Sequence record: OM386654.1
From: Escherichia phage vB_EcoM_ESCO9
Reading direction: 5' to 3' (one strand)
DNA: 64,000 nucleotides
The position numbers and the translations under genes are program-made. The notes below the pieces were generated by a model, which searched no databases, was not told where the DNA came from, and worked only from the letters and a program-made list of their open reading frames with translations. Positions 1-14,923 of this stretch are shown here, one piece after another (position 1 is the stretch's first letter; each line of letters begins with the position of its first letter).

Positions 1-947
1 TGGGTTGCCGTAGCTTCTTGTCATACTATGCAACAGAGCAAGGTGAAAAATATGATGGTCGTTTCAACTTAGGCGTAGTTTCTTTAAACTTACCTATCAT
101 TGCAGCAGAGTCCCGTGAAAAGGGCATCTTATTTACTGAACTGTTGGAACAACATATGGAGATGGCGTATAAGGCACATATGCTACGTGTTAACCGTATT
201 AGACATACCAAAGCATCTCAAAACCCTACATTGTTTATGGAAGGGGCTTTAGCTCGACTAGAAGCTAATGAAGAGATTGGTAAACTATTCGAAGGTGGTT
301 ATGCCTCTATTAGTATCGGTTATGTAGGTTTAGCAGAAGCTATGGAGATTTTATACCCAGGTAACACCAATCCAAAAGCAATGGGTAAAAACATCCTTCA
401 ATATATGAAGGATATCTGTGGCACATTTAAAGAACGTTCTGGTTTAGCTTTTAGTTTGTATGGAACACCAGCAGAATCCTTGTGCTATAAATTTGCCAAA
501 GCATTAAATGATCGCTATCCTGGTTCTATTGATCGTGACTACTTGACAAACTCTTTCCATCAACCTGTGTGGATGCACACTACCCCGTTCCAAAAGTGGG
601 ATTATGAGGAAGGTTTTGCACAAATCAGTAATGGTGGGAACATAGGCTATGTAGAAACACCAAACCTTAAAAATAACTTGCAAGCACTGGAAACCCTTGT
701 AGATTATGCCTACAACAAAATTCCTTATTTTGGCGTGAACCAACCTGTAGATCAGTGTTTCAAATGTGGTTTTCATGGTGAATTTAAGGCAACAGCTAAA
801 GGCTTCGAGTGTCCAATTTGTGGCAATCATGAGGAAGAATCTATATCTGTAATCAGAAGAGTGTCAGGATACCTGTCTGCCCCTAACTCTCGCCCTTATA
901 ATAAAGGTAAAATGCAAGAGGTATTAGAAAGGGAGAAACATTTTTGA
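1..947 (+). CDS. nrdD: Anaerobic ribonucleoside-triphosphate reductase NrdD, C-terminal part (gene starts upstream of window)
   Basis: Open frame runs to window start; C-terminal Zn-ribbon CFKCGFHGEF...CPICGN and glycyl-radical loop RVSGYLSAP typical of class III RNR. Confidence 0.85.
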   Translation, partial: GCRSFLSYYATEQGEKYDGRFNLGVVSLNLPIIAAESREKGILFTELLEQHMEMAYKAHMLRVNRIRHTKASQNPTLFMEGALARLEANEEIGKLFEGGYASISIGYVGLAEAMEILYPGNTNPKAMGKNILQYMKDICGTFKERSGLAFSLYGTPAESLCYKFAKALNDRYPGSIDRDYLTNSFHQPVWMHTTPFQKWDYEEGFAQISNGGNIGYVETPNLKNNLQALETLVDYAYNKIPYFGVNQPVDQCFKCGFHGEFKATAKGFECPICGNHEEESISVIRRVSGYLSAPNSRPYNKGKMQEVLEREKHF

Positions 948-1414
948 ATTACGCCGGATATGAACCTGTTGACATGCTCAACGGTGATGGTGTAAGATGC
1001 TCTTTGTGGGTGAGCGGTTGTAGCCACGGTTGCCGTGGCTGCTTTAACCAGAAAGCCTGGTCGTATAACTACGGACAAGAGTTCACTACTGAAACATTAG
1101 ATCTTATCTTGAAAGATTTATCTCGACCTTTCATTAAAGGATTAACAGTTTTAGGTGGTGAACCTCTTGACAAAGAGAACATTGACACTGTAGAGTATGT
1201 TCTTGAGAAGGTAAGAGATTGTTTTGGAAACAAAAAAGATATTGTCTTATATACAGGATATCTTTTTGAAGAAATTCCAGAAAAAATTAAAAAACTGGTT
1301 GACATAGTGATAGATGGTAAGTATGATATGAATCAACCAACAACGAAACGTTATAGAGGCTCAGATAATCAACGAATGTGGGTTAAGAAAGACAACATTT
1401 GGGAATCTGACTAA
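944..1414 (+). CDS. nrdG: Anaerobic RNR activating protein NrdG (radical SAM)
   Basis: N-terminus MNYAGYEPVDMLNGDGVRCSLWVSGCSHGCRGCFN matches NrdG pattern with CxxxCxxC cluster; TTG start overlaps nrdD stop, GGGAG RBS upstream. Confidence 0.8.
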   Translation: MNYAGYEPVDMLNGDGVRCSLWVSGCSHGCRGCFNQKAWSYNYGQEFTTETLDLILKDLSRPFIKGLTVLGGEPLDKENIDTVEYVLEKVRDCFGNKKDIVLYTGYLFEEIPEKIKKLVDIVIDGKYDMNQPTTKRYRGSDNQRMWVKKDNIWESD

Positions 1415-1434
1415 ATTAAATAGAGGAGAAAACT

Positions 1435-2595
1435 ATGTTTACAGTATTCGGCAATCAAATCTTTCTGCGTCAGAAATCTGGTACAGATATTGAAGAAATT
1501 CCAGCAGGAACTTTTGGTGTAGGTGTTACTCAAAGTGGTGAGTTCTTCCTGTATCCTAAAAACGATATGGAAGTCCCTTCAGTAACATACGGTGATACTG
1601 ATGATAAATCAGAACGTATTATCAAAACGTTCCTTAGCCGCAAAGGTAAAAACACAGGTGTTCTCCTTGAAGGTACGAAAGGTAGCGGTAAAACTTTGCA
1701 AGCTAAAATGCTGTCTTCTGCTCTTCGTGAAATGGGTATTCCTACTATTTCTATCGGTAGTGCTTTTAATGGTGAAGGCTTTATCAATTTTATGTCTAAA
1801 ATCACACAACCTGTGATGATTATGATCGATGAATTTGATAAACTGTATGCTGAAAAAGATGCACAAGATGGTTTGCTTACCCTGCTGGATGGTGTTGGTG
1901 GCTACGACAAACTGTTTGTATTGACTAAAAATGATGGTTATGTATCAGAATTTTTGCGTAATCGTCCTAGCCGTATTTTCTACAGTTTTAGCTATAAGAA
2001 ACTACCTAAAGCTACTATGGATGATTATCTGGCTAAAAATCTGGAGAACAAAGCCTTCTTACCAGATTTTGAAACGCTTTATAATCTCTCCGTGGATTTG
2101 AACTTTGATATTGTTCAGTCATTAGTAGAAGAACTTAACCGTTACCCTAATGACAAATTCTCTGATGCACTTGCATTGATGGGTATCAGTATTACTGAAC
2201 ACCGCTATGCTGCAAAAGAGGTTAAACTTCTGAAAGTTAACGGTGTAGATCGTACAGGAGATGTTTCGTCAGATACCGATATTGACGGTATGACAGCACA
2301 AGGTTTGTTTAGCGGTAATCGTTATGTTGTAGCTGTAGACCATAAACTAGGTGAAGAGCATCTTCCTGAAATGGAAGGGATTGTTACCGTAGAAGATAAA
2401 GATGAAGAAGGTGATTACTACTGGGGTGTAGACCGTATCTTGCTAACGTATGATGAAAAACACATTCGTACAATGGGTGGTGACGGCTATCACTTTATGT
2501 TCACCGATGATAAAGGTAACAACATTGAAGTTGTTATTAAAAACAAAGAACGTAAAAACTACACAGAGTATGTGTTTGGTGGTCGTTCTTACTAA
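1435..2595 (+). CDS. P-loop ATPase (AAA-like), function unknown
   Basis: Walker A GTKGSGKT and Walker B-like MIMIDEFD; RBS GAGGAG; followed by GAAA-loop hairpin. Confidence 0.5.
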   Translation: MFTVFGNQIFLRQKSGTDIEEIPAGTFGVGVTQSGEFFLYPKNDMEVPSVTYGDTDDKSERIIKTFLSRKGKNTGVLLEGTKGSGKTLQAKMLSSALREMGIPTISIGSAFNGEGFINFMSKITQPVMIMIDEFDKLYAEKDAQDGLLTLLDGVGGYDKLFVLTKNDGYVSEFLRNRPSRIFYSFSYKKLPKATMDDYLAKNLENKAFLPDFETLYNLSVDLNFDIVQSLVEELNRYPNDKFSDALALMGISITEHRYAAKEVKLLKVNGVDRTGDVSSDTDIDGMTAQGLFSGNRYVVAVDHKLGEEHLPEMEGIVTVEDKDEEGDYYWGVDRILLTYDEKHIRTMGGDGYHFMFTDDKGNNIEVVIKNKERKNYTEYVFGGRSY

Positions 2596-2603
2596 GTGAT
2601 AAA

Positions 2604-2628
2604 AGGAGGCGAAAGCCTCCTTTATTTA
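2604..2628 (+). terminator. Stem-loop (AGGAGGC-GAAA-GCCTCCT) followed by T-rich run
   Basis: Perfect 7-bp stem, GNRA-type loop, TTATTTAT downstream of ATPase stop. Confidence 0.45.
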
Positions 2629-2629
2629 T

Positions 2630-2833
2630 ATGGAGGGTATTATGGATCATTATTTTGTTTTTAAAGATAAAGTTGATACCGCAGGTGGTCACGTTGCTAA
2701 AAATGATCGTGACATTAAAGAAGTATTAGGAGATCTGATTAACATTTTAGAACAAAAAGAGTTGCTTTTAGATAAGGATATTGCTAGACTTCTTGGTGTG
2801 GGGATAAGTGACATACAAAGATTACCATTCTAA
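2630..2833 (+). CDS. Hypothetical protein (67 aa)
   Basis: ORF in co-directional gene array; no recognisable motif. Confidence 0.3.
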   Translation: MEGIMDHYFVFKDKVDTAGGHVAKNDRDIKEVLGDLINILEQKELLLDKDIARLLGVGISDIQRLPF

Positions 2834-2845
2834 AGGGGGAAGAAA

Positions 2846-3001
2846 ATGCTTACAGATGATGAATATAAAGCTATCCAAGAAAAACTAACGGAGCTTGAAA
2901 TTCTTGCTGTCAATATTAAAGATCAATCACATGCTGGAAAGTTACTACATCAAGAGATCAATAAAATTAAGCAGATGATATTCTTTTGGACGGAGGATTA
3001 A
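2846..3001 (+). CDS. Small hypothetical protein (51 aa), not in ORF track
   Basis: ATG preceded by strong RBS AAGGGGGAAG; fills otherwise empty gap; stop overlaps next gene region. Confidence 0.3.
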   Translation: MLTDDEYKAIQEKLTELEILAVNIKDQSHAGKLLHQEINKIKQMIFFWTED

Positions 3002-3003
3002 AA

Positions 3004-3660
3004 ATGACTGTTAAGCATATTTCTTTTGATGTATGGAATACTCTTATTACTGCTAATCCTTTGTATGCAGAAGAACGCAACAAGGTTATTGCCGAGTATG
3101 CCTCTTGTTCTGAGGCAGAAGCAGCTACTGTTTATAAAGAGGTAAAAACTCTCTTAGATTTAAAAGCAGAAAAAGGCATTTGTGGAACGTCTAAGGATGC
3201 TTGGGTAACACTTTCTACTCGTTTGAACATTGATCTTGACAAAGTGGATGGGTTAAAAAGAGATTGTTTGGCAATGTTTATAAAACATCCTCCAACATTG
3301 AATCCTGAACTTTGCAAGAAGTTGGAAGAGCTAAGTTCAACCTACTCTTTGAGTATTAAGAGCAATACTAATTTTGTACCAGGTAGTTTCTTAGCTGTAT
3401 ATTCTGGTTTAACAAAATTACCATTCGACTTTATGCATTTTTCTGACGAGTTTTGCTTGTGTAAACCAGATCCTAGGTTTTTTAAACTCTCTTTTGATGA
3501 AATGGTGACGTTTGATCTCGCACCAGAGGAGATTTTACACGTTGGAGATAGTTTGATTTATGATGGAAAAGCTGTTGACATAGGGATGAAGTTCTGTCAT
3601 ATTATTAATCCAGAAGACTTGTTGGCTAAACTTAAAAAAGAGGAACTTATTAATGCGTAA
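3004..3660 (+). CDS. HAD-superfamily hydrolase/phosphatase-like protein
   Basis: FDVWNTL N-terminal motif, CKPDPRFF (HAD motif III KP-D-P) and GDSLIYD (motif IV); RBS GGAGG. Confidence 0.6.
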   Translation: MTVKHISFDVWNTLITANPLYAEERNKVIAEYASCSEAEAATVYKEVKTLLDLKAEKGICGTSKDAWVTLSTRLNIDLDKVDGLKRDCLAMFIKHPPTLNPELCKKLEELSSTYSLSIKSNTNFVPGSFLAVYSGLTKLPFDFMHFSDEFCLCKPDPRFFKLSFDEMVTFDLAPEEILHVGDSLIYDGKAVDIGMKFCHIINPEDLLAKLKKEELINA

Positions 3661-4510
3661 TCAAATTCAACATTTTGCTAATACTTTTACTAACCTGAAG
3701 GAAGCAAAATTTAACATTGCAGATTATTCCAAACTAAAGTTTGGTAGTAACCAGGCAGCAAAAAGAATGGGGCGCATTCTGGCTGAAAGTTTCTTTTCTA
3801 AGTATGAAGAACGACTGGTAAATGAAAGTTTTGTTGTTATTCCATCTCCATATAACTATGTGAAAAATGCAGCTACAGTGTTATCTGAACATTTTGTAGA
3901 TCACCTCAACTACCTAATCTCTATCAAAGGTGGTAAACCAGTGGAGTGGGATATCGTTCATCGTAAAGTGAGCTATATCAATGATTATGGATTTCTTAGC
4001 AAAGAAGATCGTAAGGCTTTGATCGATGGTGACACTTTCTCTATCAATCGTGATTTCTGGGGTAATAAAACTCTGATTTTCATTGATGATGTTAATATTA
4101 CAGGAACGCACGAAGAAAAACTTATTGAAATTTTAGACAAAGAAGGTGTTGAAAACGATACGTTTTTCCTGTACTTTGCAAAGTATGAAGGTACAGAAGC
4201 CAACACCGAAGCTGCACTTAACTTCAACTATATCAATAACCTGGCAGCTTTTATTAAGATGATTAAGCAAGAAACTGATGCTAAATGTTTGGTTCGTCCT
4301 ATTAAGTATCTAATGAGTCAAAGCGAAGTTGATTTTAAAATTGCACTTTCACAGCTTCCTTTGTATTATGTAGAACAACTGTTCTTTGGTTGCCTTGCAG
4401 AAGGCTACAATAACATTGAAAAATATAAAGAGAACTTTGATTTTCTACGTCAATTTTTTGAAAGCAACATTATCAATAAATCTAATGTTAAAGGGGATTA
4501 TTATGTCTAA
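3653..4510 (+). CDS. Phosphoribosyltransferase (PRTase)-domain protein
   Basis: PRPP-binding type motif LIFIDDVNITGTHEE; start overlaps HAD stop (translational coupling). Confidence 0.55.
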   Translation: MRNQIQHFANTFTNLKEAKFNIADYSKLKFGSNQAAKRMGRILAESFFSKYEERLVNESFVVIPSPYNYVKNAATVLSEHFVDHLNYLISIKGGKPVEWDIVHRKVSYINDYGFLSKEDRKALIDGDTFSINRDFWGNKTLIFIDDVNITGTHEEKLIEILDKEGVENDTFFLYFAKYEGTEANTEAALNFNYINNLAAFIKMIKQETDAKCLVRPIKYLMSQSEVDFKIALSQLPLYYVEQLFFGCLAEGYNNIEKYKENFDFLRQFFESNIINKSNVKGDYYV

Positions 4511-5219
4511 TAAAGTAATGACTTTCGGAGATCCTATCACCAATATTACAGAAAAAGATTTTGGGCGTGTAGCAACAGATAAAGATGGTGTCTTAAGAAT
4601 TCGTGTACAAGGTATTACAGCACAGGATGAATATGCTGTGTATGTTTCAGGTCTTAACTATATTGATGATCGCATTACACAAAACTTTGCACTGATCGGT
4701 GGTGTAGAGAAAATGTACTGGGAAGATGAAATTGTAACAAGTTATCCAGCAGGTATCATTGAGGTATACGGTGATCTTTTAGCAGCAGCCGAGAGAGGCG
4801 ATATAGACGCTATAGCACACTGCTGTAACTGTTTTTGCACTATGGGTAGTGGTATTGCACCAAAAATTAAAAGTAAGTGGCCTGGGGCGTTTAAAGCAGA
4901 CTGTGCCACTAAACGTGGTGATTATAAAAAATTAGGTACGTTTACCAAGTATACAGAAAACAATTTGACAATTTATAATTTATATGGACAATATGGTTAT
5001 AGTCGTCGTGAGGAAGGCAAGCGTGACCTGAATTATGAAGCTATCTATAATGCGTTAGATAGTATGGGAGACGATGTTGTATCTTCAGGCGGTAAAATTG
5101 TAGGTTTACCAATGCTTGGTTGTGGTTTGGCTGGAGGTTCTTGGAATATTGTAAAACTTATGATCGAAGAAACTCTAGTAAACAAAGGTTTAAATGTAAT
5201 TGTTTACAAACTGAAATAA
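4503..5219 (+). CDS. Macro-domain-like protein (ADP-ribose binding/processing)
   Basis: DAIAHCCNC...GSGIA and LPMLGCGLAGG resemble macro-domain phosphate-binding loops; start ATG 4503 overlaps PRTase stop; RBS AAAGGGGA. Confidence 0.45.
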   Translation: MSNKVMTFGDPITNITEKDFGRVATDKDGVLRIRVQGITAQDEYAVYVSGLNYIDDRITQNFALIGGVEKMYWEDEIVTSYPAGIIEVYGDLLAAAERGDIDAIAHCCNCFCTMGSGIAPKIKSKWPGAFKADCATKRGDYKKLGTFTKYTENNLTIYNLYGQYGYSRREEGKRDLNYEAIYNALDSMGDDVVSSGGKIVGLPMLGCGLAGGSWNIVKLMIEETLVNKGLNVIVYKLK

Positions 5220-5228
5220 GGAGAAAGT

Positions 5229-5435
5229 ATGGCAGGTGTTTTAGCAGTATTAGGTTGTTTTATTGTTGTGTTCTTGATTGTGTTAATCCCTAGTTGGCTA
5301 CTGCTTTTAGCATACAATTATATGATTGACATTATCGGCTTAGACTGGCATCATGTTCCTGTAACGTTTTGGAGTGTAGTCTGTGTGACGTTCATTCTTG
5401 CGGTACTCCGTGGTATCTTTCAATCTAACAAATAA
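5229..5435 (+). CDS. Small membrane protein (68 aa, 2 predicted TM helices)
   Basis: Hydrophobic stretches VLAVLGCFIVVFLIVLIPSWLLLLAY and VTFWSVVCVTFILAVL; RBS AAGGAGAAAG. Confidence 0.4.
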   Translation: MAGVLAVLGCFIVVFLIVLIPSWLLLLAYNYMIDIIGLDWHHVPVTFWSVVCVTFILAVLRGIFQSNK

Positions 5436-5449
5436 GAGAGGATCTTTAT

Positions 5450-5698
5450 ATGCGTAAAGTAAATGTTGAAGTGCTTGAAAAATTTATAAACACCCGTGAT
5501 TGTACTATCGGCAAGGTTTACGAGGCTATTCTCATTGAAGATGGGGATGAAGTTCCTGCCCCGTATCATGCCTTTAACGGTCAGGTTAGCAAAGTGGAAG
5601 GTGGTCTTGCTATTTGCTTTATTGATGATGTAGGTGATGCTGTAGCTTTCCCTATCATTAACAAAGAAGATAAACTTAAAATTACAGAACTGAACTAG
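5450..5698 (+). CDS. Hypothetical protein (82 aa)
   Basis: ORF with RBS GAGAGGATC upstream; no recognised motif. Confidence 0.4.
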   Translation: MRKVNVEVLEKFINTRDCTIGKVYEAILIEDGDEVPAPYHAFNGQVSKVEGGLAICFIDDVGDAVAFPIINKEDKLKITELN

Positions 5699-5726
5699 TT
5701 GACTTTCTTTAAAAACAGTTTATAGT
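5699..5726 (+). promoter_or_regulatory. Sigma70-like promoter candidate (TTGACT-16-TATAGT) upstream of terC-like gene
   Basis: Near-consensus -35 and -10 hexamers with 16-nt spacer. Confidence 0.35.
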
Positions 5727-5738
5727 ATAAGATATAGA

Positions 5739-5757
5739 GCGGAGGATTGTCCTCCGC
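5739..5757 (+). other. Stem-loop in putative 5' UTR of terC-like gene (GCGGAGG-ATTGT-CCTCCGC), no U-tract
   Basis: Perfect 7-bp inverted repeat between promoter candidate and RBS GAGGAG. Confidence 0.35.
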
Positions 5758-5775
5758 ATTAAAGAGGAGATAAGA

Positions 5776-6753
5776 ATGCAACTGGGTTTCCCAATTATTG
5801 ATGTGGTTGTTTTAGTGGGTATTTTAGTGTTGTCGATTTGTATTGATTTCTTTGGCCACAGAGAAAACAAAGAAATTTCATTTAAATCTGCAATTGGTTG
5901 GTCAATTTTTTGGATTGGGGTATCATTAGCCTACTATGGTTTTGTATACTTCCAGCACGGTGCTGATTTTGCGAGCTTGTTCTTGAGTGGGTATGTGTTG
6001 GAGAAATCTCTTTCTGTAGATAACTTAGTAGTATTTGTGGCAGTATTCGCAAGTTTTGGTATTAAAAGCACACACTTGCAACACAAGATTCTACTTTGGG
6101 GTATTGCAGGTGCGATTGTCTTCCGAGGTGTGTTTGTAGCAGTAGGCACTTACTTGTTGAGTTTGGGTTGGTATGTTAATATCTTCTTCGGTGCTGTCAT
6201 CCTTTTCTGTGCGGCTAAAATGGTATTCGCTGGAGATAATGATGCAGAAGTTGATTACTCTAAACACTGGGCTACTCGCATTGTTCGTAAGCTGTTCCCT
6301 GTATCTGATCAGATGGATGGTGAGAAGTTCTTCACAATCAAAAATGGTGTTCGTGTAGCAACTCCGGCTCTGGTTTGTGTGTTTGTAATGGAAATGGTTG
6401 ACGTAATCTTTGCAGTAGACTCTGTTCCAGCAGTAATTGCAGTGACACAAGAACCTCTGCTGGTGTTCTCTTCGATGCTCTGTGCAATCTTAGGTTTACG
6501 TGCTCTGTTCTTTGTTCTTAGTGTTGCACTGAAGTATTTGGTTCATCTGGAGAAAGCAGTTATCGTAGTCCTGGTATTTGTGGGTGTAAAACTGATGTAT
6601 CATCCGTTTGCAGAAACTCTGCACGCAAAAGTGAGTTTCCTGCCAGCACACATTGATCCGACGATCAGTATGTATATTGTGTTAGGTACTCTTGGGTTGG
6701 GTGTTATTGCAAGTTTAATCTTCCCTGAAAAAGAAGACCAGACTGTTGCTTAA
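5776..6753 (+). CDS. terC: TerC-family integral membrane protein
   Basis: Multi-TM protein with duplicated TerC signature: LEKSLSVDNLVVFVAVF and EMVDVIFAVDSVPAVIAVT. Confidence 0.8.
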   Translation: MQLGFPIIDVVVLVGILVLSICIDFFGHRENKEISFKSAIGWSIFWIGVSLAYYGFVYFQHGADFASLFLSGYVLEKSLSVDNLVVFVAVFASFGIKSTHLQHKILLWGIAGAIVFRGVFVAVGTYLLSLGWYVNIFFGAVILFCAAKMVFAGDNDAEVDYSKHWATRIVRKLFPVSDQMDGEKFFTIKNGVRVATPALVCVFVMEMVDVIFAVDSVPAVIAVTQEPLLVFSSMLCAILGLRALFFVLSVALKYLVHLEKAVIVVLVFVGVKLMYHPFAETLHAKVSFLPAHIDPTISMYIVLGTLGLGVIASLIFPEKEDQTVA

Positions 6754-6760
6754 TTCATTA

Positions 6761-6782
6761 AGCCCCTTCGGGGGCTTTGTTG
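6761..6782 (+). terminator. Intrinsic terminator (AGCCCC-TTCG-GGGGCT + T-run)
   Basis: UUCG tetraloop hairpin followed by TTTGTTG just after terC-like stop. Confidence 0.5.
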
Positions 6783-6985
6783 AGGTGATCTGATGGTAGT
6801 TTTACGTGTTCTTTGGATTCTGTTTGAAAATATTTGTTTTGCTTTAGGGTTATTTTGTTTGATTTTTATCTTGACAACATACATTGATAACCATACAATT
6901 ACTATCAACAGGAACGGAGAACAGATGTATTGTTTCTCTAGGGATTTTAAAAATTGTGTTGAGACTTTAAATGAGAGGGTTACAA

Positions 6986-7576
6986 ATGAAAAACATTAAA
7001 TCTTTTATTGTTGCAGTTGTTTTAGGTAGTGCATTGCTGGTAGGTTGTGATGATTCTGAAAATGTACAAAATCAACGTTACCAACAAACACCAAATCAGA
7101 TGGTAGATGAACAATATGTAAATCAGCCTGCACCTCAAGTTGTTCAAGCAGCACCTGCACAACCTTCAACAGTTGTTGTGCAAGGAGGCGGCAGTGGTTC
7201 TTCTGGTGTAGGTGAGTTTGCTACAGGTATGCTTCTTGGTCATATGTTGAGTGGTAATAGTGGCGGTGGTGGTTATAGAGATGGTGGTAGCAGCACAACA
7301 ATTATTAATAACAACGCTGCTCCTACAACTAACAGTAAAGCATATACAACACAAAAGCATAGTTTTTATGATAAACAAGGAAATACATATACAACCACTA
7401 AACAAAACACAATTAAGCAGCAAAGTGTACAAACGTATTCACGCCCATCAACAACAAAAGTGAATAGTGATTACTCTGCTCGTAAGTCTTACTCAAGCCC
7501 TATTAGCTCTTATAGTAAGTCTTCGAAAAGTTATTCTTCGTCGAAACGTAGTTTTAGTAGCTCACGTCGTCGTTAA
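6986..7576 (+). CDS. Putative lipoprotein, Gly/Ser/Thr-rich
   Basis: Signal peptide with lipobox LLVGC; low-complexity S/T/G-rich mature region; RBS GAGAGG. Confidence 0.5.
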   Translation: MKNIKSFIVAVVLGSALLVGCDDSENVQNQRYQQTPNQMVDEQYVNQPAPQVVQAAPAQPSTVVVQGGGSGSSGVGEFATGMLLGHMLSGNSGGGGYRDGGSSTTIINNNAAPTTNSKAYTTQKHSFYDKQGNTYTTTKQNTIKQQSVQTYSRPSTTKVNSDYSARKSYSSPISSYSKSSKSYSSSKRSFSSSRRR

Positions 7577-7611
7577 TAATTTAATACAGATTAAATAAGA
7601 AGGAGAAACAG

Positions 7612-8463
7612 ATGAAACTAGAAGTTGGTAAAGTATATCGCCTGGAAGGTTGGATCTTTAATCAAGAAATCCTTGAGAAGAATAAAGATGGTTTTGAGTT
7701 TGTTGGTACTACCAAGGAAAGTATGCACGATGACGAATACTGTAAATTCGTTGGTAAAAATACAGGTCAAGAACAATTTTGCTTTAAGAGCGCAATCGGG
7801 GACTATGCTTCTGTAATGCCAACACCAGAAAAGACTTCGAAGCAATATACTGTCTTTGGTGTAAAACTTGAAGAACTTGTAGAACACCCACGTTTTGAAG
7901 AGTTCAAGGTTGCTGCAATGCGCAAGCATTCTGAAATTAAAATACATAATTTGTTTGATTTAGAAGATCGGTTTGATATCTTTATGTATGATCGCAGGGA
8001 AAAGCATTTTGATGCAACGACTTCAAAATTTGCTGCAACAGAGGATATTAAAATCCTTGATGTTGATACCTTTCTTGAGAGTGTATCGTTTGTATTCATT
8101 CCTAAATACAAAAAACGTAGTGATCATAAACGTGTGAAAGGAACTCCTCGTAAGAAACGTACTGTAAACAAAGCAACTTTGCACTTCACTTCTGGTGATA
8201 AATATACTCTCAAAGGGTTTGAAAGTGTTTTATATGATGCTGGAACAGGTAATATCAAGTTTATCATTAAGGCAACCTACAAAGGTACGGTATTGCACGA
8301 AGAGGCTGTTACACTACCTGTATTCGATATCTCTCGTGTTGAGGTACGGGGTGTTAAAGAGTCCTTCGATCTGGATTTCTTAACTACTAATGCTACTGGT
8401 TATGTTAATCTGGAAGCAGATGGAGCATTTATTACTACAAATTATTTAGATATGTTTGTTTAA
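7612..8463 (+). CDS. Hypothetical protein (283 aa)
   Basis: Long ORF with RBS AAGGAGAAA; no motif recognised. Confidence 0.45.
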   Translation: MKLEVGKVYRLEGWIFNQEILEKNKDGFEFVGTTKESMHDDEYCKFVGKNTGQEQFCFKSAIGDYASVMPTPEKTSKQYTVFGVKLEELVEHPRFEEFKVAAMRKHSEIKIHNLFDLEDRFDIFMYDRREKHFDATTSKFAATEDIKILDVDTFLESVSFVFIPKYKKRSDHKRVKGTPRKKRTVNKATLHFTSGDKYTLKGFESVLYDAGTGNIKFIIKATYKGTVLHEEAVTLPVFDISRVEVRGVKESFDLDFLTTNATGYVNLEADGAFITTNYLDMFV

Positions 8464-8531
8464 TACTTAATTTGTGTTATGATGGTGGTACAGAGGTATC
8501 ACCATCTACTAAAGAATATGGAGGAAATTGA

Positions 8532-9635
8532 ATGTCCAGTCCTTTTATCAGTGCCGTAAAAAGCAAACCGTCTGAAATGAGTGTATTCACGGCAACAACA
8601 GAAAAAAGTAAGTCTTTGTTTGCTCCAAGTGCTATGGATGCAAGCCCTGTATATGCCCCTGCTGTTGCACGACCTGTACAAATGCTGCCTCCAATGTCTC
8701 GTGAAGAGATTGAACAGGTTGGTGCTGATGCAGGACTTACTCTTCGTAACCTTAATGCTGAAGTGCTTAAACACCAGCGTTCATCTCAGGGAGATGAAAT
8801 GAGTGAACGTTTAACTGCACTTATTAAGCAAGCAAAGCAACTTGATCCTAACTCTATTAAACAATCTAAAGGCTTAGGTAAACTAGTTAAGAAAGTATTA
8901 GGTATGAAAGAAGATTTGTTTGGTGAATTTGACACCATCAATAATCGTATTGAAGGTTTGGTAAAGACACTACAAACAGACTTGAAAAAAGAAGAAGATT
9001 CTTTACGATATCTGCAACGTTTAGAAGAGGCTATTGCAAAATATGCTCTTAGCTTAAACAGGGATATAGAGCTTCTAACAGCTACTTATGAAAAAGAAGA
9101 AGTTCGCCTTAATACACTACCTGAAAATGAAGTAGAAGAGCGTCAACGTACTCGTGACACTATGGATCTGCTTGAAATTCGTATTGCAGATCTGAAAGCC
9201 TTACGTTTACTGTGCGTTCAGATGGGGCCACGTGTACAAAGTATGCAGAAAGTATCTGCAAGTTTGATGCGATCAGCCCGTAATATTGTGAATAATGTTA
9301 TTCCTGCTTACTCTGCAAACTTTTCTATGTATATTGAAAGTCTACGCCAGAAGAAAGCAGCCGATACGCAGAACAATGTACTGAATGAATTTAATGCTGC
9401 TATTGCAATGGGTAGTGATCTGGCTGCACAAAACCAGATTGAAGCTACACAACTTGCTAATCGTCAAGTATTGGATATTGAAACATTGCGTCGTGATCAA
9501 GAAAACTTAGTTAAAATGTTGGAAGAAACTAACCGAATCAACACTGAAGCCCGTGCTGCTCGTATTGATTACATTCAAGAAGTGCAATCTCTTGAAGATG
9601 GTATGATTCAAACTGTTAAACGTGGTCTACTTTAA
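8532..9635 (+). CDS. Coiled-coil protein, candidate TelA/KlaA-like toxic-anion-resistance family member
   Basis: 367-aa predominantly helical/coiled-coil protein; assignment rests mainly on size, composition and position between terC-like and terD-like genes. Confidence 0.35.
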   Translation: MSSPFISAVKSKPSEMSVFTATTEKSKSLFAPSAMDASPVYAPAVARPVQMLPPMSREEIEQVGADAGLTLRNLNAEVLKHQRSSQGDEMSERLTALIKQAKQLDPNSIKQSKGLGKLVKKVLGMKEDLFGEFDTINNRIEGLVKTLQTDLKKEEDSLRYLQRLEEAIAKYALSLNRDIELLTATYEKEEVRLNTLPENEVEERQRTRDTMDLLEIRIADLKALRLLCVQMGPRVQSMQKVSASLMRSARNIVNNVIPAYSANFSMYIESLRQKKAADTQNNVLNEFNAAIAMGSDLAAQNQIEATQLANRQVLDIETLRRDQENLVKMLEETNRINTEARAARIDYIQEVQSLEDGMIQTVKRGLL

Positions 9636-9648
9636 GGAGAAATATATT

Positions 9649-9855
9649 ATGAATATTAAAATTTACAAACTGTCTGGTTCTATGATTGCTGTTCAGTATG
9701 ACAATGAAGATCGTTATGTTCTCCTCCAGGATGCTTGGTTAGATGATCCTAATGTATTCACTGTCCTGCGAGAACTACGTTCTGTCTATACCTATTCTTC
9801 TAAAGATGGTTTTGACAATTCAACGATGGAATTGGTAAAAGAGGAGAATGTGTAA
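9649..9855 (+). CDS. Hypothetical protein (68 aa)
   Basis: ATG with RBS AAGGAGAAA. Confidence 0.4.
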   Translation: MNIKIYKLSGSMIAVQYDNEDRYVLLQDAWLDDPNVFTVLRELRSVYTYSSKDGFDNSTMELVKEENV

Positions 9856-10055
9856 TGAGTAAAGATATTCACTTAACTCGTGAAGAATTGCAAACCATTA
9901 TGGAAGATGCTTTCATTGATGGTTGGAAACAAGGTCAAGAATCAGATTGGTATGATGCCGAAGATTTTTTGTATTATCATATGACTGCACCTGTAGACGA
10001 GCAAACACACTCTGAAACAACTTTGGCTTTAATTGATCTTAAGGCTGGTGTATAA
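9855..10055 (+). CDS. Hypothetical protein (66 aa)
   Basis: ATG with RBS GAGGAG, start overlaps previous stop. Confidence 0.4.
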   Translation: MSKDIHLTREELQTIMEDAFIDGWKQGQESDWYDAEDFLYYHMTAPVDEQTHSETTLALIDLKAGV

Positions 10056-10618
10056 TGGGGTGTTTTAGTTTCTTGTGCAAAGAGTCTGGTAATGCTGCTC
10101 TTTCTACCTCTTTCGATGGCTCTCCTTGCTACCTATTTCTTTTGAAAGGTGGTAAGGTTGTCGAAGAGATGTATGGGAATTATGATAGCTATGGTAGTGT
10201 TTTCTCTAACGAAGAAGATAAACATGGCAATCGTAAAAGATTTAAGTGGTCTATGCCTTGGGAAGAAGTTTGTAATTTGATGTTCTCTTCCGATCTTGGA
10301 GATGGGATTGCTCTAGTATTAGAAGAGCACTTTACAGGCGAGATCCCAACAGAAAGATCTGAAGAAGACCCTAACCAGGGTTGGGGTGATGGGGAAGAAG
10401 ATCCAGATTGCTTCTTCAGCACTGAAAATAATAAATTTAAACGTGTTGACAATCCTTACCACAAAGTGCATAATACTTGCATTGAGACAGAAGAAGACTC
10501 AAAGCTAGAAATTGAAGATGATTTAGTTGTAACTATCTCTTTAAACGAGTTGCAAAAAATCACTAGAGAGGCTTTCTATTTAGGTTGGAAAGTAGGTAAA
10601 GGAGGAGATAGTGCTTAA
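10055..10618 (+). CDS. Hypothetical acidic protein (187 aa)
   Basis: ORF in coupled array; Asp/Glu-rich. Confidence 0.4.
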   Translation: MGCFSFLCKESGNAALSTSFDGSPCYLFLLKGGKVVEEMYGNYDSYGSVFSNEEDKHGNRKRFKWSMPWEEVCNLMFSSDLGDGIALVLEEHFTGEIPTERSEEDPNQGWGDGEEDPDCFFSTENNKFKRVDNPYHKVHNTCIETEEDSKLEIEDDLVVTISLNELQKITREAFYLGWKVGKGGDSA

Positions 10619-10880
10619 ATTTAATATCAAAGACGACAAATCAGATGAACCTAAATGTTTTGGAGAACTTGACGTAGGTGATACATTTGTATATTATGTT
10701 GCCTATCAAGATTCTGGTTTAGATACATTCAGAAATTTAGTGTTTATTAAGGTTAATACAAACCAAGCAATGTGTCTGAACGGTTCGCAAAGAGGTCAAC
10801 TTAGCTGTATTTCGTATGATACAGAAATGGTAGAAGTGGATTTAGAAGTTACTAACATTACACTCAGAAAGGAGAAATAA
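10611..10880 (+). CDS. Hypothetical protein (89 aa)
   Basis: GTG start with RBS AGGAGGAG. Confidence 0.4.
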   Translation: MLKFNIKDDKSDEPKCFGELDVGDTFVYYVAYQDSGLDTFRNLVFIKVNTNQAMCLNGSQRGQLSCISYDTEMVEVDLEVTNITLRKEK

Positions 10881-10881
10881 T

Positions 10882-11676
10882 ATGTCCAATAAAATCAGTC
10901 TTAAAAAACGTCAAGAAACTCTTACCGTATCTCTGCGTAAGAAAAAGATTAACGATGTTGTTCTTCGTGTCGGTAGTGCCTTAGATATTTCGGGTAGTAT
11001 GTGTGAGCTGTATCGTGATGGCACTGTTAGTGATTTTGTAGGTAAACTGCTGCCGTTTGGTATGAAGTTTGATGATAATGCACAGATTGACATGTGGGCT
11101 TTCAATAGTTCTTCTTTTGAACTGCCTCCTGCAACGGCTGATGTATATGATGATTATGTCGGCTCTTGTATGTCTAATGTTTGCATCAATGGTGGTACAG
11201 CTTATGCCCCAGTAATGCAAGAGATCTATGATACATACTTCGGTAGTGTACCTATGAAAAATATTACACGCGAAGTCGTTGAGTATGAAGAAGTTCCGGC
11301 TAAGGGTTTCCTTGCTAAACTAACTGGTAAAAAAGAACGTGTAGAAGTTACACGTACTGTTGTAGAACAGGTTGTAGATACTGATGCACAAGTTGATCGT
11401 ACTCCTGCAATGATTTTCTTCCAAACTGACGGGGAGAACATGGATACTTCAGCAGTACGTAGTTTGCTGAACAAACACCGCAACACTCCTGTTTACTGGT
11501 TTATGGTTGGTGTAGGCAATGCAAACTTTAAATTCCTGAAAGACTTGGCAAAAGAATACGATAATGTTGATTTTATCGGTATTGCAGATTTGTCCTTGTC
11601 TGACGAAGAACTTTACGATAAACTGCTATCCGAAGAGTTTGGTGAGTGGGTTAAAAAATTTGGAGCAAAAGCGTAA
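10882..11676 (+). CDS. vWA-domain protein (TerY-like) with TerD-like N-terminal segment
   Basis: MIDAS motifs LDISGSM, GGTAYAP and FFQTDGENMD; N-terminus MSNKISLKKRQETLTVSL resembles TerD N-terminus. Confidence 0.55.
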   Translation: MSNKISLKKRQETLTVSLRKKKINDVVLRVGSALDISGSMCELYRDGTVSDFVGKLLPFGMKFDDNAQIDMWAFNSSSFELPPATADVYDDYVGSCMSNVCINGGTAYAPVMQEIYDTYFGSVPMKNITREVVEYEEVPAKGFLAKLTGKKERVEVTRTVVEQVVDTDAQVDRTPAMIFFQTDGENMDTSAVRSLLNKHRNTPVYWFMVGVGNANFKFLKDLAKEYDNVDFIGIADLSLSDEELYDKLLSEEFGEWVKKFGAKA

Positions 11677-11683
11677 AAAACGC

Positions 11684-11711
11684 TTGACTTTGTAGAAAAG
11701 ATTAGTAAAAT
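11684..11711 (+). promoter_or_regulatory. Sigma70-like promoter candidate (TTGACT-16-TAAAAT) upstream of terD
   Basis: Consensus-like hexamers, 16-nt spacer, about 40 nt upstream of terD start. Confidence 0.4.
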
Positions 11712-11748
11712 AGACAACGTAAATTAACAACAAAGGAGATAATAAATT

Positions 11749-12345
11749 ATGACTCAGAAAATTTCCCTGAAAAAAGGTTCTAGCGAAAAAGTTTCTCTGA
11801 AAAAGATTGCACCAGCACTGAAACGCATTCGTCTGGAATTCTCTTGGAAATCTAACGAAAAACTGGATCTGGATGTTAGTGCTCTGATTTGCCGACACAA
11901 TGCATCTGGTCTGCCGGAACTGTTGTCTCCTCGCCACCTGGTGTGCTACGCGCAGAAATTTGATCCTGAACGTTCTACTTTTGCAGGTGAAGATGTTCGT
12001 GATGGTGTAGGACAGATGGAGCAGATTGATGTTACACTGGATAATATCTCTGCTGAAGCACAGGAAATTGCATTCGTAATTACTATTGATGACGAAACGG
12101 GTAAGAAACGCCTTGGTCACGCTACCGAAGGTTTCCTTAAAATCTTCGATGATGAACGTAATGTTGAACTGCTGGATTTTGACTTCTTGGCTCCAGAACT
12201 TGCAGGTAATACCATTTGCCACGTTGCCTCCCTGGTGCGGGAAGATAGCGAATGGAAACTGAAAGCATATGGTGTAGGTAAAGCTGGACTTGACATTTAT
12301 GATGTAGTTAAAGCGTTTGGCGCTGGCGACGATTGGTTCGAGTAA
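11749..12345 (+). CDS. terD: TerD-family protein
   Basis: ISLKKG...KVSLKK, LDLDVSALIC, FVITIDD, EWKLKAYGVG align in order with the TerD family pattern as recalled from E. coli TerD. Confidence 0.85.
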   Translation: MTQKISLKKGSSEKVSLKKIAPALKRIRLEFSWKSNEKLDLDVSALICRHNASGLPELLSPRHLVCYAQKFDPERSTFAGEDVRDGVGQMEQIDVTLDNISAEAQEIAFVITIDDETGKKRLGHATEGFLKIFDDERNVELLDFDFLAPELAGNTICHVASLVREDSEWKLKAYGVGKAGLDIYDVVKAFGAGDDWFE

Positions 12346-12354
12346 TAAATCATA

Positions 12355-12378
12355 GCGCCCTTCGGGGCGCATATTTTA
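12355..12378 (+). terminator. Intrinsic terminator (GCGCCC-TTCG-GGGCGC + AT/T-run)
   Basis: UUCG tetraloop hairpin immediately after terD stop. Confidence 0.5.
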
Positions 12379-12397
12379 AATAGAAGAGGAGAAAACA

Positions 12398-13000
12398 ATG
12401 GGTATTACTTTAGAAGGTCAAAAACTTATTCGTAGCGGTAATTTTCTTGTGGATATTGACAACAATGAAGATTATGCTTTAGAAGTTAGTGATGTACTGT
12501 TTAATGCTTTGCAGTCTGGTTTCAATTTTGAAGTTTATGAAGTAATCCGTGGAACTAAACTCAGAGATACCCTTGGATCAACTAGTGATGTTTATTCGGC
12601 AATCTGGCAATATTTCGGGTTAATGGATGGTAAGACATACCTTACTGATAGTTATTCTGAAGATGTTGTTTATCTTGATATGGAAGAGTTTCGTCGTCTG
12701 TTCAAAAATGAAGAAAATGAAGAAGAGGGTGAACTTTTTGAAGGAATTACTCTCGAAGGTAATGTTGAAATTGTGTATAAAGCAGGAAAAACATTCCACT
12801 TGCGCGAAAACGGTAAAGCAAAAGTTGATTTTGTAAACAAGACAGTAACAACTGAACATAATTATCTTAAAGATGGTCAACCAGCTTTTGAACGTGTAAC
12901 AATTAAATTTAAAGTATTGTCTGCACTAATTACGGATCAAGAACGTATTGATTTTGTAGAAGATGGTGTAGTAACTCATACGAAGGTCTACAACATCTAA
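12398..13000 (+). CDS. Hypothetical protein (200 aa)
   Basis: ORF with RBS AGAGGAG. Confidence 0.45.
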   Translation: MGITLEGQKLIRSGNFLVDIDNNEDYALEVSDVLFNALQSGFNFEVYEVIRGTKLRDTLGSTSDVYSAIWQYFGLMDGKTYLTDSYSEDVVYLDMEEFRRLFKNEENEEEGELFEGITLEGNVEIVYKAGKTFHLRENGKAKVDFVNKTVTTEHNYLKDGQPAFERVTIKFKVLSALITDQERIDFVEDGVVTHTKVYNI

Positions 13001-13010
13001 CAGGGTGTAA

Positions 13011-13029
13011 GAGGGGGATAATCCCCCTC
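13011..13029 (+). other. Stem-loop GAGGGGGA-TAA-TCCCCCTC (no U-tract)
   Basis: Perfect 8-bp inverted repeat after the 12398-13000 gene. Confidence 0.35.
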
Positions 13030-13032
13030 AAC

Positions 13033-13061
13033 TTGCAAAACAGCCTCTTCTGTGTTACAAT
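13033..13061 (+). promoter_or_regulatory. Sigma70-like promoter candidate (TTGCAA-17-TACAAT)
   Basis: Hexamers with 17-nt spacer upstream of cell wall hydrolase gene. Confidence 0.35.
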
Positions 13062-13092
13062 AAAAGTTCGTTTAACAAAATAGGAGGCAAGT

Positions 13093-13602
13093 TTGTCAAT
13101 AAAAACCTTTGTCGCAATTGCGTTACTATCCTTAACTGCTTTTACATTTACACCTGTCGTGGCGCAAGCCGAAGCTGCAAACGTAAAAACTGCTAAAGTA
13201 GTTCACAAGTGTACAAAGCGTGATAGTAAAGAAAATCTATTAGCTTGTGCAATCTATGCAGAAAGTCGTAATCAAGGAAAGCGCGGTATGTCTGCTGTTG
13301 GTAATGTAGTATTAAATAGGGCTAGAGATTCATATTTCCCTGATACTATAAAAGAAGTTTTGTTTCAAAAAGGACAATTCTCTTACACAAAGACATTCAA
13401 CGTTATGGAACGTGATAAGTGGAAGGAAGCTAAGGCTATAGCAGAACGTCTGCTTTATCTCGATACGCATTTTCCAGAATTACGAATTGCATTAGATATT
13501 ACAAAAGGAGCATTATACTTTAAAAAATCTACAATAAGAGCACACTGGGAAAAAGATATGGTTCTAGTGTACCGCTACAAAGAACATCAATTCTATCGCT
13601 AA
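13093..13602 (+). CDS. Secreted cell-wall hydrolase, SleB/Hydrolase_2-like
   Basis: N-terminal signal peptide (…FTPVVAQAEAANV); motif CAIYAESRNQG...GNVVLNRA...FSYTK typical of SleB-type cell wall hydrolases; TTG start with RBS AGGAGG. Confidence 0.6.
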   Translation: MSIKTFVAIALLSLTAFTFTPVVAQAEAANVKTAKVVHKCTKRDSKENLLACAIYAESRNQGKRGMSAVGNVVLNRARDSYFPDTIKEVLFQKGQFSYTKTFNVMERDKWKEAKAIAERLLYLDTHFPELRIALDITKGALYFKKSTIRAHWEKDMVLVYRYKEHQFYR

Positions 13603-13612
13603 GGAGATATAG

Positions 13613-13891
13613 ATGAAAGATGGCGTTATCGTTGCAAGTTATCTTGTTATTGGTCTTACAGAAGAGGATGTACATTACATTAGGAAACATTTAGAACAGT
13701 TTGCAATGATGTTCATCGAAGACGAAGACAATATGGATGTTTATTCAATTGAAATGATCAATGATAACGTCTATCCTTGTATAGCTTTACGAGTCGATGA
13801 AGATGTTTGGGAACGTTTTTCACGTAGTCACGATAATGTTGAATGTTCTATGGTTATGTCACAAAACAACATACTGGGAGTGTTACACTGA
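13613..13891 (+). CDS. Hypothetical protein (92 aa)
   Basis: ORF with RBS AAGGAG. Confidence 0.4.
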   Translation: MKDGVIVASYLVIGLTEEDVHYIRKHLEQFAMMFIEDEDNMDVYSIEMINDNVYPCIALRVDEDVWERFSRSHDNVECSMVMSQNNILGVLH

Positions 13892-14121
13892 TGGCTGATG
13901 TTATTGAGGTTAACTTTAAAACAAAAAAGAAAGTTGATAAGTATACAATCTTAAAAAATATTTGCGTTGTGTGCTTCAATTCTGTAATATATGACTCACG
14001 TAAGGGCGAAAATGAAAATGAACCTTACATCCAGATTTCTAAAGGTAAAGGGCAGTGTATCTGCAAAAACTGTGCTGTAGCAATTAAGGAGGTTGTAGAT
14101 GAAAACCATTGGGATCAATGA
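13891..14121 (+). CDS. Hypothetical small Cys-rich protein (possible zinc ribbon)
   Basis: ATG 13891 overlaps previous stop (ATGA); CVVC...CICKNC pattern. Confidence 0.35.
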   Translation: MADVIEVNFKTKKKVDKYTILKNICVVCFNSVIYDSRKGENENEPYIQISKGKGQCICKNCAVAIKEVVDENHWDQ

Positions 14122-14293
14122 TACTGGTGAAGTTGTAAAATCTTGGGATGATCTTAGTGGTATCCCTACAGATAAGCTGATTAAACTGCGTGATGTTTGT
14201 CGTGATCATCTTAATGAAACATATAAAGAGTATATGGAAGCACGAGATCACAGTTTAGCTATCCAAATGGAACTCGCAAAACGTAATCAATAG
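14099..14293 (+). CDS. Hypothetical protein (64 aa)
   Basis: ORF with RBS AAGGAGG. Confidence 0.35.
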   Translation: MKTIGINDTGEVVKSWDDLSGIPTDKLIKLRDVCRDHLNETYKEYMEARDHSLAIQMELAKRNQ

Positions 14294-14350
14294 GTAAAAC
14301 CATTTGGACTTTTTAGTCTAAAAATGCTAAAGTAATAATACGGAGGGAGT

Positions 14351-14914
14351 ATGATATTTCACATAACTCCCTATCTTTCTGGAGATATTGGAAAAGGTAT
14401 CAATGACACAATAAGTGTCTTACCAGAAGATAGTTGGATTTGCCTAAGAGACATTGATACAATGTTTCTTCTTCCAGAACAACCTGCTTGGCTGGAATCA
14501 ATTGTCCGTTCAAATCCTGATTTTGATGTTCTTGGTGCATCTTGTAACAGATTGGGATCAACATATCAATTATTTAATAATGAAAGAAGTGAAGATCCGA
14601 ATATATTACACCACATTGAGATTGCAAAAAGAGCACATCTAGAATGGGGAAACTCAATAGAGGAAGTACCTACAGATGCTATCTTAGCAGGATTCTTTCT
14701 TCTCTTTCGTAAGAGTCTGTGGAATGAAATTCCTTTTGAGGAAAGATCAATACAGTTTGATATAATTTTCTCTAAAGCATTGCACGCTAACAATAAAAGG
14801 CTAGGTTTACTACGTGGGTTATATTTATTTCACACATACCGTTTAGGTAATGATGATCCTAGAAAAGCTGTTTCACACCTTTTACATTGTCAAGACATGA
14901 ATAAAATTATTTAA
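14351..14914 (+). CDS. Hypothetical protein, possibly glycosyltransferase-related
   Basis: 187-aa ORF with RBS GGAGGGAG directly upstream of three GT-like genes; no firm motif. Confidence 0.35.
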   Translation: MIFHITPYLSGDIGKGINDTISVLPEDSWICLRDIDTMFLLPEQPAWLESIVRSNPDFDVLGASCNRLGSTYQLFNNERSEDPNILHHIEIAKRAHLEWGNSIEEVPTDAILAGFFLLFRKSLWNEIPFEERSIQFDIIFSKALHANNKRLGLLRGLYLFHTYRLGNDDPRKAVSHLLHCQDMNKII

Positions 14915-14923
14915 GGAGTTATT

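Follow-up and report, generated by a model that had tools for sequence, protein, structure and literature searches.

Escherichia phage vB_EcoM_ESCO9 (OM386654.1) encodes a TerC-family membrane protein, and we analysed this gene, its leader and its surroundings within a stretch of 64,000 nucleotides of the phage genome, referred to below as the window. Sequence similarity places the phage among the phi92-like members of the genus Justusliebigvirus, subfamily Stephanstirmvirinae, with a genome size of ~146 kb: bases 5400-7000 are 97.6-98.5% identical to phi92-like coliphages (best 30 of 54 near-full-length matches, in a 95-99% identity band), including phiWec187, PaulScherrer and phi92 itself. 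The terC locus is made up of the following elements.

5699..5726, + strand: candidate sigma-70-type promoter, with TTGACT at 5699-5704, a 16-nt spacer and TATAGT at 5721-5726
5727..5738, + strand: 12-nt stretch between the -10 element and the hairpin, ATAAGATATAGA, with a predicted transcription start at ~A5732-A5734
5739..5757, + strand: 5'-proximal RNA stem-loop, GCGGAGG (5739-5745), loop ATTGT, CCTCCGC (5751-5757)
5765..5769, + strand: Shine-Dalgarno sequence AGGAG, 7 nt past the hairpin and 6 nt before the ATG; the phi92 record annotates a ribosome-binding site here
5776..6753, + strand: terC, ATG start, 325 amino acids (aa), TerC/Alx-family integral membrane protein, orthologue of phi92 gp182
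6760..6782, + strand: terminator-type hairpin AAGCCCC-TTCG-GGGGCTT followed by TGTTG, 7 nt past the stop codon

The 77-nt intergenic space before terC is fully occupied, in order, by the stop codon of the upstream open reading frame (ORF), the promoter, the 12-nt stretch, the hairpin, the Shine-Dalgarno sequence and the ATG, with the -35 element beginning directly past the upstream TAG (5696-5698). The start site is predicted from the usual 6-8 nt spacing after a -10 element and would give a leader of ~42 nt from start to ATG. A leader mini-ORF (TTG 5747 to TAA 5771-5773) was considered and discarded, given its Shine-Dalgarno spacing of 1-2 nt, its position within the stem and its lack of conservation in phAPEC8. 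The terC gene itself is not new and has been annotated since the phi92 genome, in which gp182 is already listed as a 'putative membrane bound tellurium resistance protein'. Its product is assigned to PHROG 7180, category 'moron, auxiliary metabolic gene and host takeover', and tblastn retrieved TerC homologues from 176 phage records in several families.

TerC protein family and predicted fold

The original prediction, made from the letters of the DNA and its translations, had read a strong TerC signature and a membrane protein at this locus, and profile searches and structure prediction bear out both. Against Pfam TerC (PF03741) the product scores 133.1 bits (cutoff 27.8, E=1.2e-38), with positions 2-177 of the 178-position profile covered. 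Its residues 10-318 match NCBIfam TIGR03718 ('TerC/Alx family metal homeostasis membrane protein') with 322.8 bits against a curated cutoff of 246.4; models for the YkoY and YjbE subfamilies score below their own cutoffs. An AlphaFold2 model (pLDDT 79.6, pTM 0.78) contains nine long helices (residues 7-27, 36-61, 63-94, 99-128, 132-151, 197-224, 227-251, 258-285 and 295-315), and a crude hydropathy scan is consistent with ~9 transmembrane helices, the architecture of a polytopic inner-membrane protein; nine segments are also predicted for E. coli Alx (PMC10197570). Neither a PDB sequence search nor a Foldseek comparison of the AlphaFold2 model with the PDB (best E=0.23) identified a solved structure of a relative.

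Across an alignment of 24 homologues (phage TerC together with 23 phage and cellular proteins), residues E76, D82, E206, D209 and D215 are invariant and fall in the motifs EKSLSVDN and E-x2-D-x2-F-x2-DSVP. They share a 6/3/6 spacing with E86/D92/E213/D216/D222 of E. coli Alx, an equivalence drawn from motif and spacing, with E. coli Alx itself lying outside the alignment; substitution of these Alx residues abolishes Mn2+ export (PMC10197570). Alx, MeeF/MeeY and Klebsiella TerC have been shown to move Mn2+ or other divalent metals in cells. Roles variously ascribed to TerC proteins include resistance to tellurite, to phages and to colicins, as well as Mn export and the metalation of exoenzymes. 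The nearest cellular homologues, 'TerC/Alx' proteins of Pasteurellaceae and Moraxella at ~49-50% identity, adjoin genes for TerY-type vWA or TerD proteins. The phage protein keeps these intramembrane acidic residues, and its most plausible function is that of an active exporter of metal or a factor in metalation; the phage offers a compact system in which to ask what TerC and the Ter module do.

Several records with unexpected host labels contain terC genes that are 71-99.7% identical to the coliphage versions: MG065645.1 and its relatives ('Campylobacter phage A145') at 99.7%, OR584014.1 ('Pseudomonas phage PsgM04F') at 94.4%, and OP562383.1 ('Acinetobacter phage ABPW7') at 71.3%, the same figure as for phAPEC8. 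By this similarity, the non-enterobacterial host labels of the A145, PsgM04F and ABPW7 records look doubtful.

The leader stem-loop and its cassette family

Both leader elements named in the original prediction, the TTGACT-16-TATAGT promoter candidate and a perfect 7-bp stem-loop at 5739-5757, were recovered exactly where it had placed them. The stem has 7 bp, a closing A-T pair lengthening it to 8 bp, and folds alone with a dG of -13.4 kcal/mol; the 102-nt region around it has a folding z of -2.55 relative to shuffles. Extra flanking A-U pairs in the minimum-free-energy fold of the window sequence are not conserved in other copies. Upstream of terC, the same geometry of promoter, 12 nt and hairpin is kept in phAPEC8, Mt1B1_P17, a Klebsiella phage and two metagenomic relatives (68-72% protein identity), and between-genus similarity at terC begins at the -35 element. 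Orthologous leaders keep the promoter as TTGAC(A/T)-16-TA(A/T)(A/G)(A/G)T, and the GenBank record of phAPEC8 annotates a 'putative host dependent promoter determined with MEME' at the homologous site.

The stems themselves vary from one terC leader to another, from GCGGAGG/CCTCCGC in the window to GCGGGGA/TCCCCGC, AGAGGGGG/CTCCCTCT, AGGGAGAG/CTCTCCCT and AGAGGGAG/CTCCCTCT. To count pairs, we used ungapped, loop-centred windows from six terC leaders and nine paralogues, a whole-cassette MAFFT alignment being unsuited to the purpose since it put gaps into one arm only. Pairing is retained in 94.1% of cells, compared with 74% in shuffled and ~57% in slid alignments; all nine of the nine stem pairs show double-sided changes, and the wobbles comprise four G.U pairs in the sense orientation and no A.C. 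This covariation and the G.U-only wobbles mark the hairpin as an RNA-level structure of the sense strand that is under structural selection. When a covariance model built from this alignment (R1) was run across the window, its best match was the terC copy, on the + strand (29.5 bits, E=4.7e-6), and the same hairpin scored 18.8 bits on the - strand.

R1 had one other notable match in the window, a perfect palindrome (GAGGGGGAT-A-ATCCCCCTC) at ~13011-13029, just past the stop of ORF 12398-13000. Here the palindrome is followed by TTGCAA-17-(TGt)TACAAT (13011-13061, + strand), upstream of a cell-wall hydrolase gene (13093-13602), in a hairpin-to-promoter order opposite to that of the terC cassette.

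The leader is one of many such cassettes. We scanned complete genomes, and shuffled versions of them, for composites in which a GC stem of 7 bp or more lies 5-17 nt downstream of a strong sigma-70 match. This returned 17 composites in Justusliebigvirus alia, a close relative, against 0.35 (maximum 2) in shuffled genomes, and 12 in Phapecoctavirus DIJ07P1 against 0.4 (again no more than 2); both counts include unrelated composites, and about 10 of those in DIJ07P1 are true members. In alia, 14 sites, two of them from a hairpin scan, form one sequence family. Its pattern runs from an AT-rich upstream region through TTGACA, 16-17 nt, TAnnnT and (G)TATCACATAG into the hairpin (G)GCGGG(G)AA(A)-TGG/TAG-(T)TTCCCGC(C), an A-rich stretch, a weak Shine-Dalgarno sequence and an ATG. 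The stretch at 5727..5738 is related to the (G)TATCACATAG consensus, and the terC leader has the junction CATAGAGCGG in common with the cassette alia+87450. Across the cassettes the hairpin starts 9-13 nt past the -10 element, that is, beyond the predicted +1, and the sense strand after every hairpin is A-rich with no U tract.

Twelve of the 14 alia members lie in an 8-kb cluster at 81-90 kb, outside the stretch that corresponds to the window, and precede ORFs of 56-130 aa; of the other two, one precedes a 136-aa ORF and one is the terC leader, the only cassette inside the window. Early clusters of small ORFans with their own cassettes thus occupy 81.2-89.5 kb in alia and 78.5-83.5 kb in Phapecoctavirus DIJ07P1. 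An IMG/VR search found the exact early-cluster hairpin behind a promoter in Justusliebigvirus contigs only, and searches at the level of sequence consequently miss other genera. The same element precedes unrelated ORFans, and the combination of promoter and hairpin is a generic early-gene cassette of the phage subfamily. The claim that terC has a promoter and hairpin of its own is therefore right as regards their existence and conservation, but not as regards a link to TerC in particular, given that at least 12 small early ORFs elsewhere carry the same cassette. Nor does terC, for which an early region had been proposed, lie in the small-ORF early cluster; it sits in the nucleotide-metabolism/replication block, within a Ter module.

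Several cassette hairpins are identical within one genome, GGCGGGAAATGGTTTCCCGCC occurring five times, which suggests gene conversion or duplication. The only other cassette gene outside the early cluster is the conserved 136-aa ORF (MSLINTTIWATVSMST...), at 125990 (- strand) in alia and 124775 (- strand) in DIJ07P1. In the structural block of the window, at ~46700-46780 on the - strand, there is a further arrangement of promoter, hairpin and Shine-Dalgarno sequence, in which TTGACA-18-TAAAAT is followed by an AT-rich hairpin (TGATAAG...CTTATCA) and then ATTAAGAGG...ATG, upstream of ORF 45986-46696.

At the 3' end of terC, a hairpin is present in the same position in phAPEC8, Mt1B1_P17, the Klebsiella phage and the loci L010-L012, as GAGCCTCC-TTCG-GGAGGCT(C) or AAAGCCCC-...-GGGGCTTT with T-rich tails, and it is kept with compensatory changes (GCCTCC/GGAGGC). 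It belongs to a second, terminator-like class of hairpin that is common in the genome. With leader cassette and 3' hairpin both conserved, terC appears to be bracketed by conserved start and stop signals. The ORFs that flank this cassette-terC-terminator unit are non-homologous on both sides between the window phage and phAPEC8, and the Klebsiella phage retains a distant homologue of the ORF upstream of terC.

The Ter module around terC

The genes on either side of terC form a Ter stress-response neighbourhood, in which TerC is accompanied by TerD, TelA, a TerF/TerY-type vWA protein, a PRTase and a HAD hydrolase. On the same strand and in order, NrdD/NrdG, an AAA ATPase, HAD, PRTase_3, Macro and two small ORFs precede terC; small membrane- or lipoprotein-like ORFs, TelA, vWA-TerF-like and TerD follow it; and beyond TerD lie a cell-wall hydrolase, glycosyltransferases, a primase-helicase and a DNA polymerase. 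HAD, PRTase_3, Macro, TerC, TelA, vWA-TerF and TerD all fall on one strand at 2986-12345, less than 10 kb, with ORFs of unknown function interspersed among the downstream Ter genes (8532..12345).

2986-3660, + strand: HAD hydrolase (Pfam/NCBIfam profile match)
3653-4510, + strand: PRTase_3, ComF-like (Pfam/NCBIfam profile match)
4503-5219, + strand: Macro domain, phi92 gp185 (Pfam/NCBIfam profile match)
8532-9635, + strand: TelA, Ter gene downstream of terC
10882-11676, + strand: vWA-TerF-like, Ter gene downstream of terC
11749-12345, + strand: TerD, Ter gene downstream of terC

No TerB, TerZ, TerA, TerE or ATP-grasp protein was detected in the window, and among the neighbouring ORFs neither Pfam at E<=5 nor BLASTP identified further Ter-family proteins (TerB, a second TerD). 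TerC paired with TerD, in some cases also with TerB, recurs in unrelated virulent phages, TerD and TerB both accompanying it in Grimontviridae and Schitoviridae. Ter systems have been described in jumbo 'and certain other related smaller tailed phages', where a use against superinfecting phages was suggested (PMC7824862), and a Klebsiella phage paper agrees with that account.

For the Macro-domain protein (4503-5219, + strand), the NCBIfam model of the DarG antitoxin ADP-ribosyl glycohydrolase gave a match below its threshold (E=5.5e-13); the protein could act on a nucleotide metabolite linked to Ter or against defences that work by ADP-ribosylation. Just downstream of terC (6793-7576, + strand), a small transmembrane ORF of 68 aa, weakly matching DUF6693, runs into the beginning of a lipoprotein-like ORF that is rich in Ser and Gly and has the lipobox MKNIKSFIVAVVLGSALLVGC. 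Inside the 68-aa ORF, at 6871-6899, is a TTGACA-17-TACAAT site.

Function of the unit and its relation to known systems

The sequences show directly what the protein is, how the unit is built, that its stem-loop is conserved and covaries, that the cassettes form a family and that terC has Ter genes around it. On this basis we think it fairly probable that promoter, 5' stem-loop, Shine-Dalgarno sequence, terC and terminator form an autonomous early unit encoding an Alx/TerC-type protein that acts with the Ter module. Host sigma-70 polymerase would initiate at ~A5732-5734 right after infection, as at the other cassettes, a timing suggested by the consensus promoter and by the association of cassettes with small early ORFans; as one of only two genes outside the early cluster to have a cassette, and with a conserved terminator, terC is predicted to be expressed immediately by host polymerase. 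The transcript would open with 3-7 unpaired nt and then the hairpin. A 5'-proximal hairpin after a few unpaired nucleotides protects E. coli mRNAs such as ompA and papA from RNase E/RppH decay, and shielding of the mRNA from this 5'-end-dependent decay would be the most likely role of the terC hairpin, which may also insulate the Shine-Dalgarno sequence from upstream sequence in read-through transcripts. Transcription would stop largely at the UUCG hairpin. The protein would then insert into the inner membrane, move Mn2+ or another divalent metal via its intact acidic residues and work with TelA, TerD, the vWA protein and the PRTase/HAD/Macro enzymes to change the infected cell's envelope and its metal status, the proposed pay-offs of the Ter module being exclusion of competing phages, stress tolerance or metalation.

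Several points weigh against this account. Promoter activity, early timing, start site, hairpin role and transport substrate are all predictions from sequence. The bare promoter match is at chance level, with 72 sigma-70-like sites in 1-20000 against 66.6 +/- 7.3 in shuffled sequence, so that the significance of the promoter derives from its conservation and recurrence and not from its match to consensus. A start at A5732-5734 would leave an unpaired tail of 5-7 nt, which work on ompA by Belasco reportedly puts at or beyond the limit for protection by a 5' hairpin. In the relative vB_EcoM_EP57 (OR544956.1) terC was matched in two pieces, annotated as two 'integral membrane protein' coding sequences; this split suggests a disrupted gene, and hence that terC is non-essential or dispensable. 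Finally, in divergent relatives (58-67% identity) terC abuts the preceding ORF with no intergenic cassette, which makes the cassette dispensable for terC; it would thus be a lineage-specific addition, and the cassette-terC-terminator unit seems to behave like a module. Two of the relatives that have no intergenic cassette, L017 and L018, contain a promoter-like site, TTGACA-16/17-TA(C/G)AAT (~1400-1490 in both), some 60 nt ahead of terC and within the 3'-terminal part of the preceding ORF; in L017 the site also has a short hairpin.

A more far-reaching version, which we regard as speculative, is that the Stephanstirmvirinae cassettes are a distinct, hitherto undescribed mobile class of early regulatory element whose transcribed hairpin is read by a factor, and that terC was recruited to this immediate-early regulon as a self-contained 'moron'. 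If so, that factor, be it the decay machinery, an RNA-binding protein or polymerase, from host or phage, would time the early programme, and the phage would rewire Mn2+ and envelope status and, with the Ter module, exclude rivals from the first minutes of infection.

Among other explanations for the stem-loop, attenuation fares best, if still unlikely. Here the stem-loop would mainly attenuate or terminate read-through from upstream genes, each cassette resetting transcription, a function proposed, and in part demonstrated, for the stem-loops of the PeSL elements of T4-type phages. Tight packing of the genes ahead of terC makes read-through likely, and the series promoter, stem-loop, Shine-Dalgarno sequence and ATG is repeated before ORFans as in descriptions of PeSLs; a PeSL stem-loop cut lacZ expression like a strong terminator (PMC2839356). 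However, the A-rich sequence after every cassette hairpin provides no U tract, a hairpin downstream of the promoter would attenuate the cassette's own transcripts equally, and a separate U-tailed class of hairpin (AAAGCCCC...GGGGCTTT) already serves for termination, including right after terC.

An operator is the less probable still. A dimeric phage regulator binding the inverted repeat as double-stranded DNA, at ~+5 to +25, could shut off early promoters, and the perfect palindromes immediately 3' of promoters, the identity of several paralogous copies in one genome (GGCGGGAAATGGTTTCCCGCC, five copies) and the presence of a helix-turn-helix 'transcriptional regulator' gene (phi92 gp189) 3 kb upstream would all suit it. 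Yet the stems differ widely among copies and genera with their pairing kept, the terC hairpin has only the outer GCGG/CCGC in common with the early-cluster copies, and all the wobbles are sense-strand G.U pairs, which would be mismatched on the antisense strand or in palindromic DNA.

The riboregulatory element or RNase III site that the original prediction had suggested for the leader is largely refuted, and we give it very little credence. In cells, a Mn riboswitch in the 5' leader is the classic control of alx/TerC-family genes (compare the NCBIfam name 'R_switched_Alx'; PMC10197570), and the leader hairpin is conserved, as a TerC-specific riboswitch-like element or small-RNA target might be. 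An Rfam search of 5000-7500 at E<=10 nevertheless returned chance-level matches only, with no yybP-ykoY Mn riboswitch, the leader is only ~42 nt long, and the same element stands before unrelated ORFans. The nearest cellular terC loci likewise have no yybP-ykoY at E<=0.1, and Rfam found nothing relevant at the loci of phAPEC8 and the Klebsiella phage; replacement of a riboswitch by the phage is accordingly unsupported as far as the closest homologues are concerned. RNase III substrates are ~20 bp of double-stranded RNA (about two helical turns), often with an internal loop, a length well beyond the conserved stem of 7-10 bp, whose flanking A-U pairs are not conserved. We reject a minus-strand intrinsic terminator, as annotated in the record of phage Paula and returned by a pattern scan (GCGGAGGACAATCCTCCGC and TCTATATCTT), since every gene for >20 kb is on the + strand, the T-rich tail is not conserved in the phAPEC8 or Klebsiella orthologues, and both the G.U wobbles and the R1 scores (29.5 bits on + versus 18.8 on -) favour a + strand RNA.

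As a predicted early leader with a probably protective 5' hairpin, the terC leader resembles those with the hp1 hairpin of the ompA 5' untranslated region and the papA hairpin in having a stable hairpin a few nucleotides from its predicted 5' end, followed by an A/U-rich single strand and a Shine-Dalgarno sequence. It differs from them in a predicted unpaired 5' tail of 3-7 nt, which may be too long for full protection. At the level of the protein, the likeness to E. coli Alx and TIGR03718 extends over the full length (~325 versus 321 aa), with ~9 transmembrane helices and five acidic residues at identical spacing. Unlike alx, the phage gene has a constitutive-looking promoter and a short hairpin in place of a yybP-ykoY Mn/pH riboswitch, and unlike the cellular TerC/Alx homologues, the best of which reach ~50% identity, the protein lacks a loop insertion of ~15 residues.

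As in the terZABCDEF and related Ter operons (IncHI2 R478, Klebsiella, Pasteurellaceae), terC lies near genes for TerD, a TerF/TerY-like vWA protein, TelA, a PRTase and a HAD phosphatase. The phage module differs from these operons in belonging to a virulent myovirus, in having its genes mixed with ORFans, with TerB, TerZ, TerA and TerE undetected in the window, and in a terC that has its own promoter and terminator and is not an internal operon gene. The gene set (PRTase and HAD, TerC, TerD, TerF-vWA, TelA) is that of the phage Ter systems described by Iyer et al. 2021 (PMC7824862). That work dealt with jumbo phages and did not address regulation, whereas here the genome is ~146 kb and terC is the sole Ter gene with an early-class cassette.

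The closest parallel to the cassettes is the PeSL (promoter-early stem-loop) of T4-type phages (Arbiol et al. 2010, PMC2839356; Comeau et al. 2014, PMC4122927). Both are compact arrangements of upstream stop, strong sigma-70 promoter, GC stem-loop, Shine-Dalgarno sequence and ATG, both are present in many copies per genome, mostly before small ORFans (56-136 aa in our case), and in both the gene content of relatives differs at cassette borders. For phi92-, phAPEC8- or rV5-like phages, our literature searches yielded no description of the cassette or of what terC does, and within the literature searched no earlier account of PeSL-like elements as a family in Stephanstirmvirinae seems to exist. 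In a PeSL the stem-loop may overlap the promoter, lie inside it or upstream of it, or come directly ahead of the start (PMC2839356; PMC4122927); in the Stephanstirmvirinae cassettes, which belong to a lineage other than the T4-type myoviruses, it is fixed 9-13 nt after the -10 element, at the predicted 5' end of the mRNA and with no U tract. By analogy, we term the phage cassettes PeSL-like rather than PeSL, because of this separate lineage and fixed post-promoter hairpin, and because terminator activity and mini-circles are features of PeSLs. They extend PeSL-like cassettes beyond T4-type phages, in a form where a covariation-supported RNA element is placed at the predicted 5' end of the mRNA.

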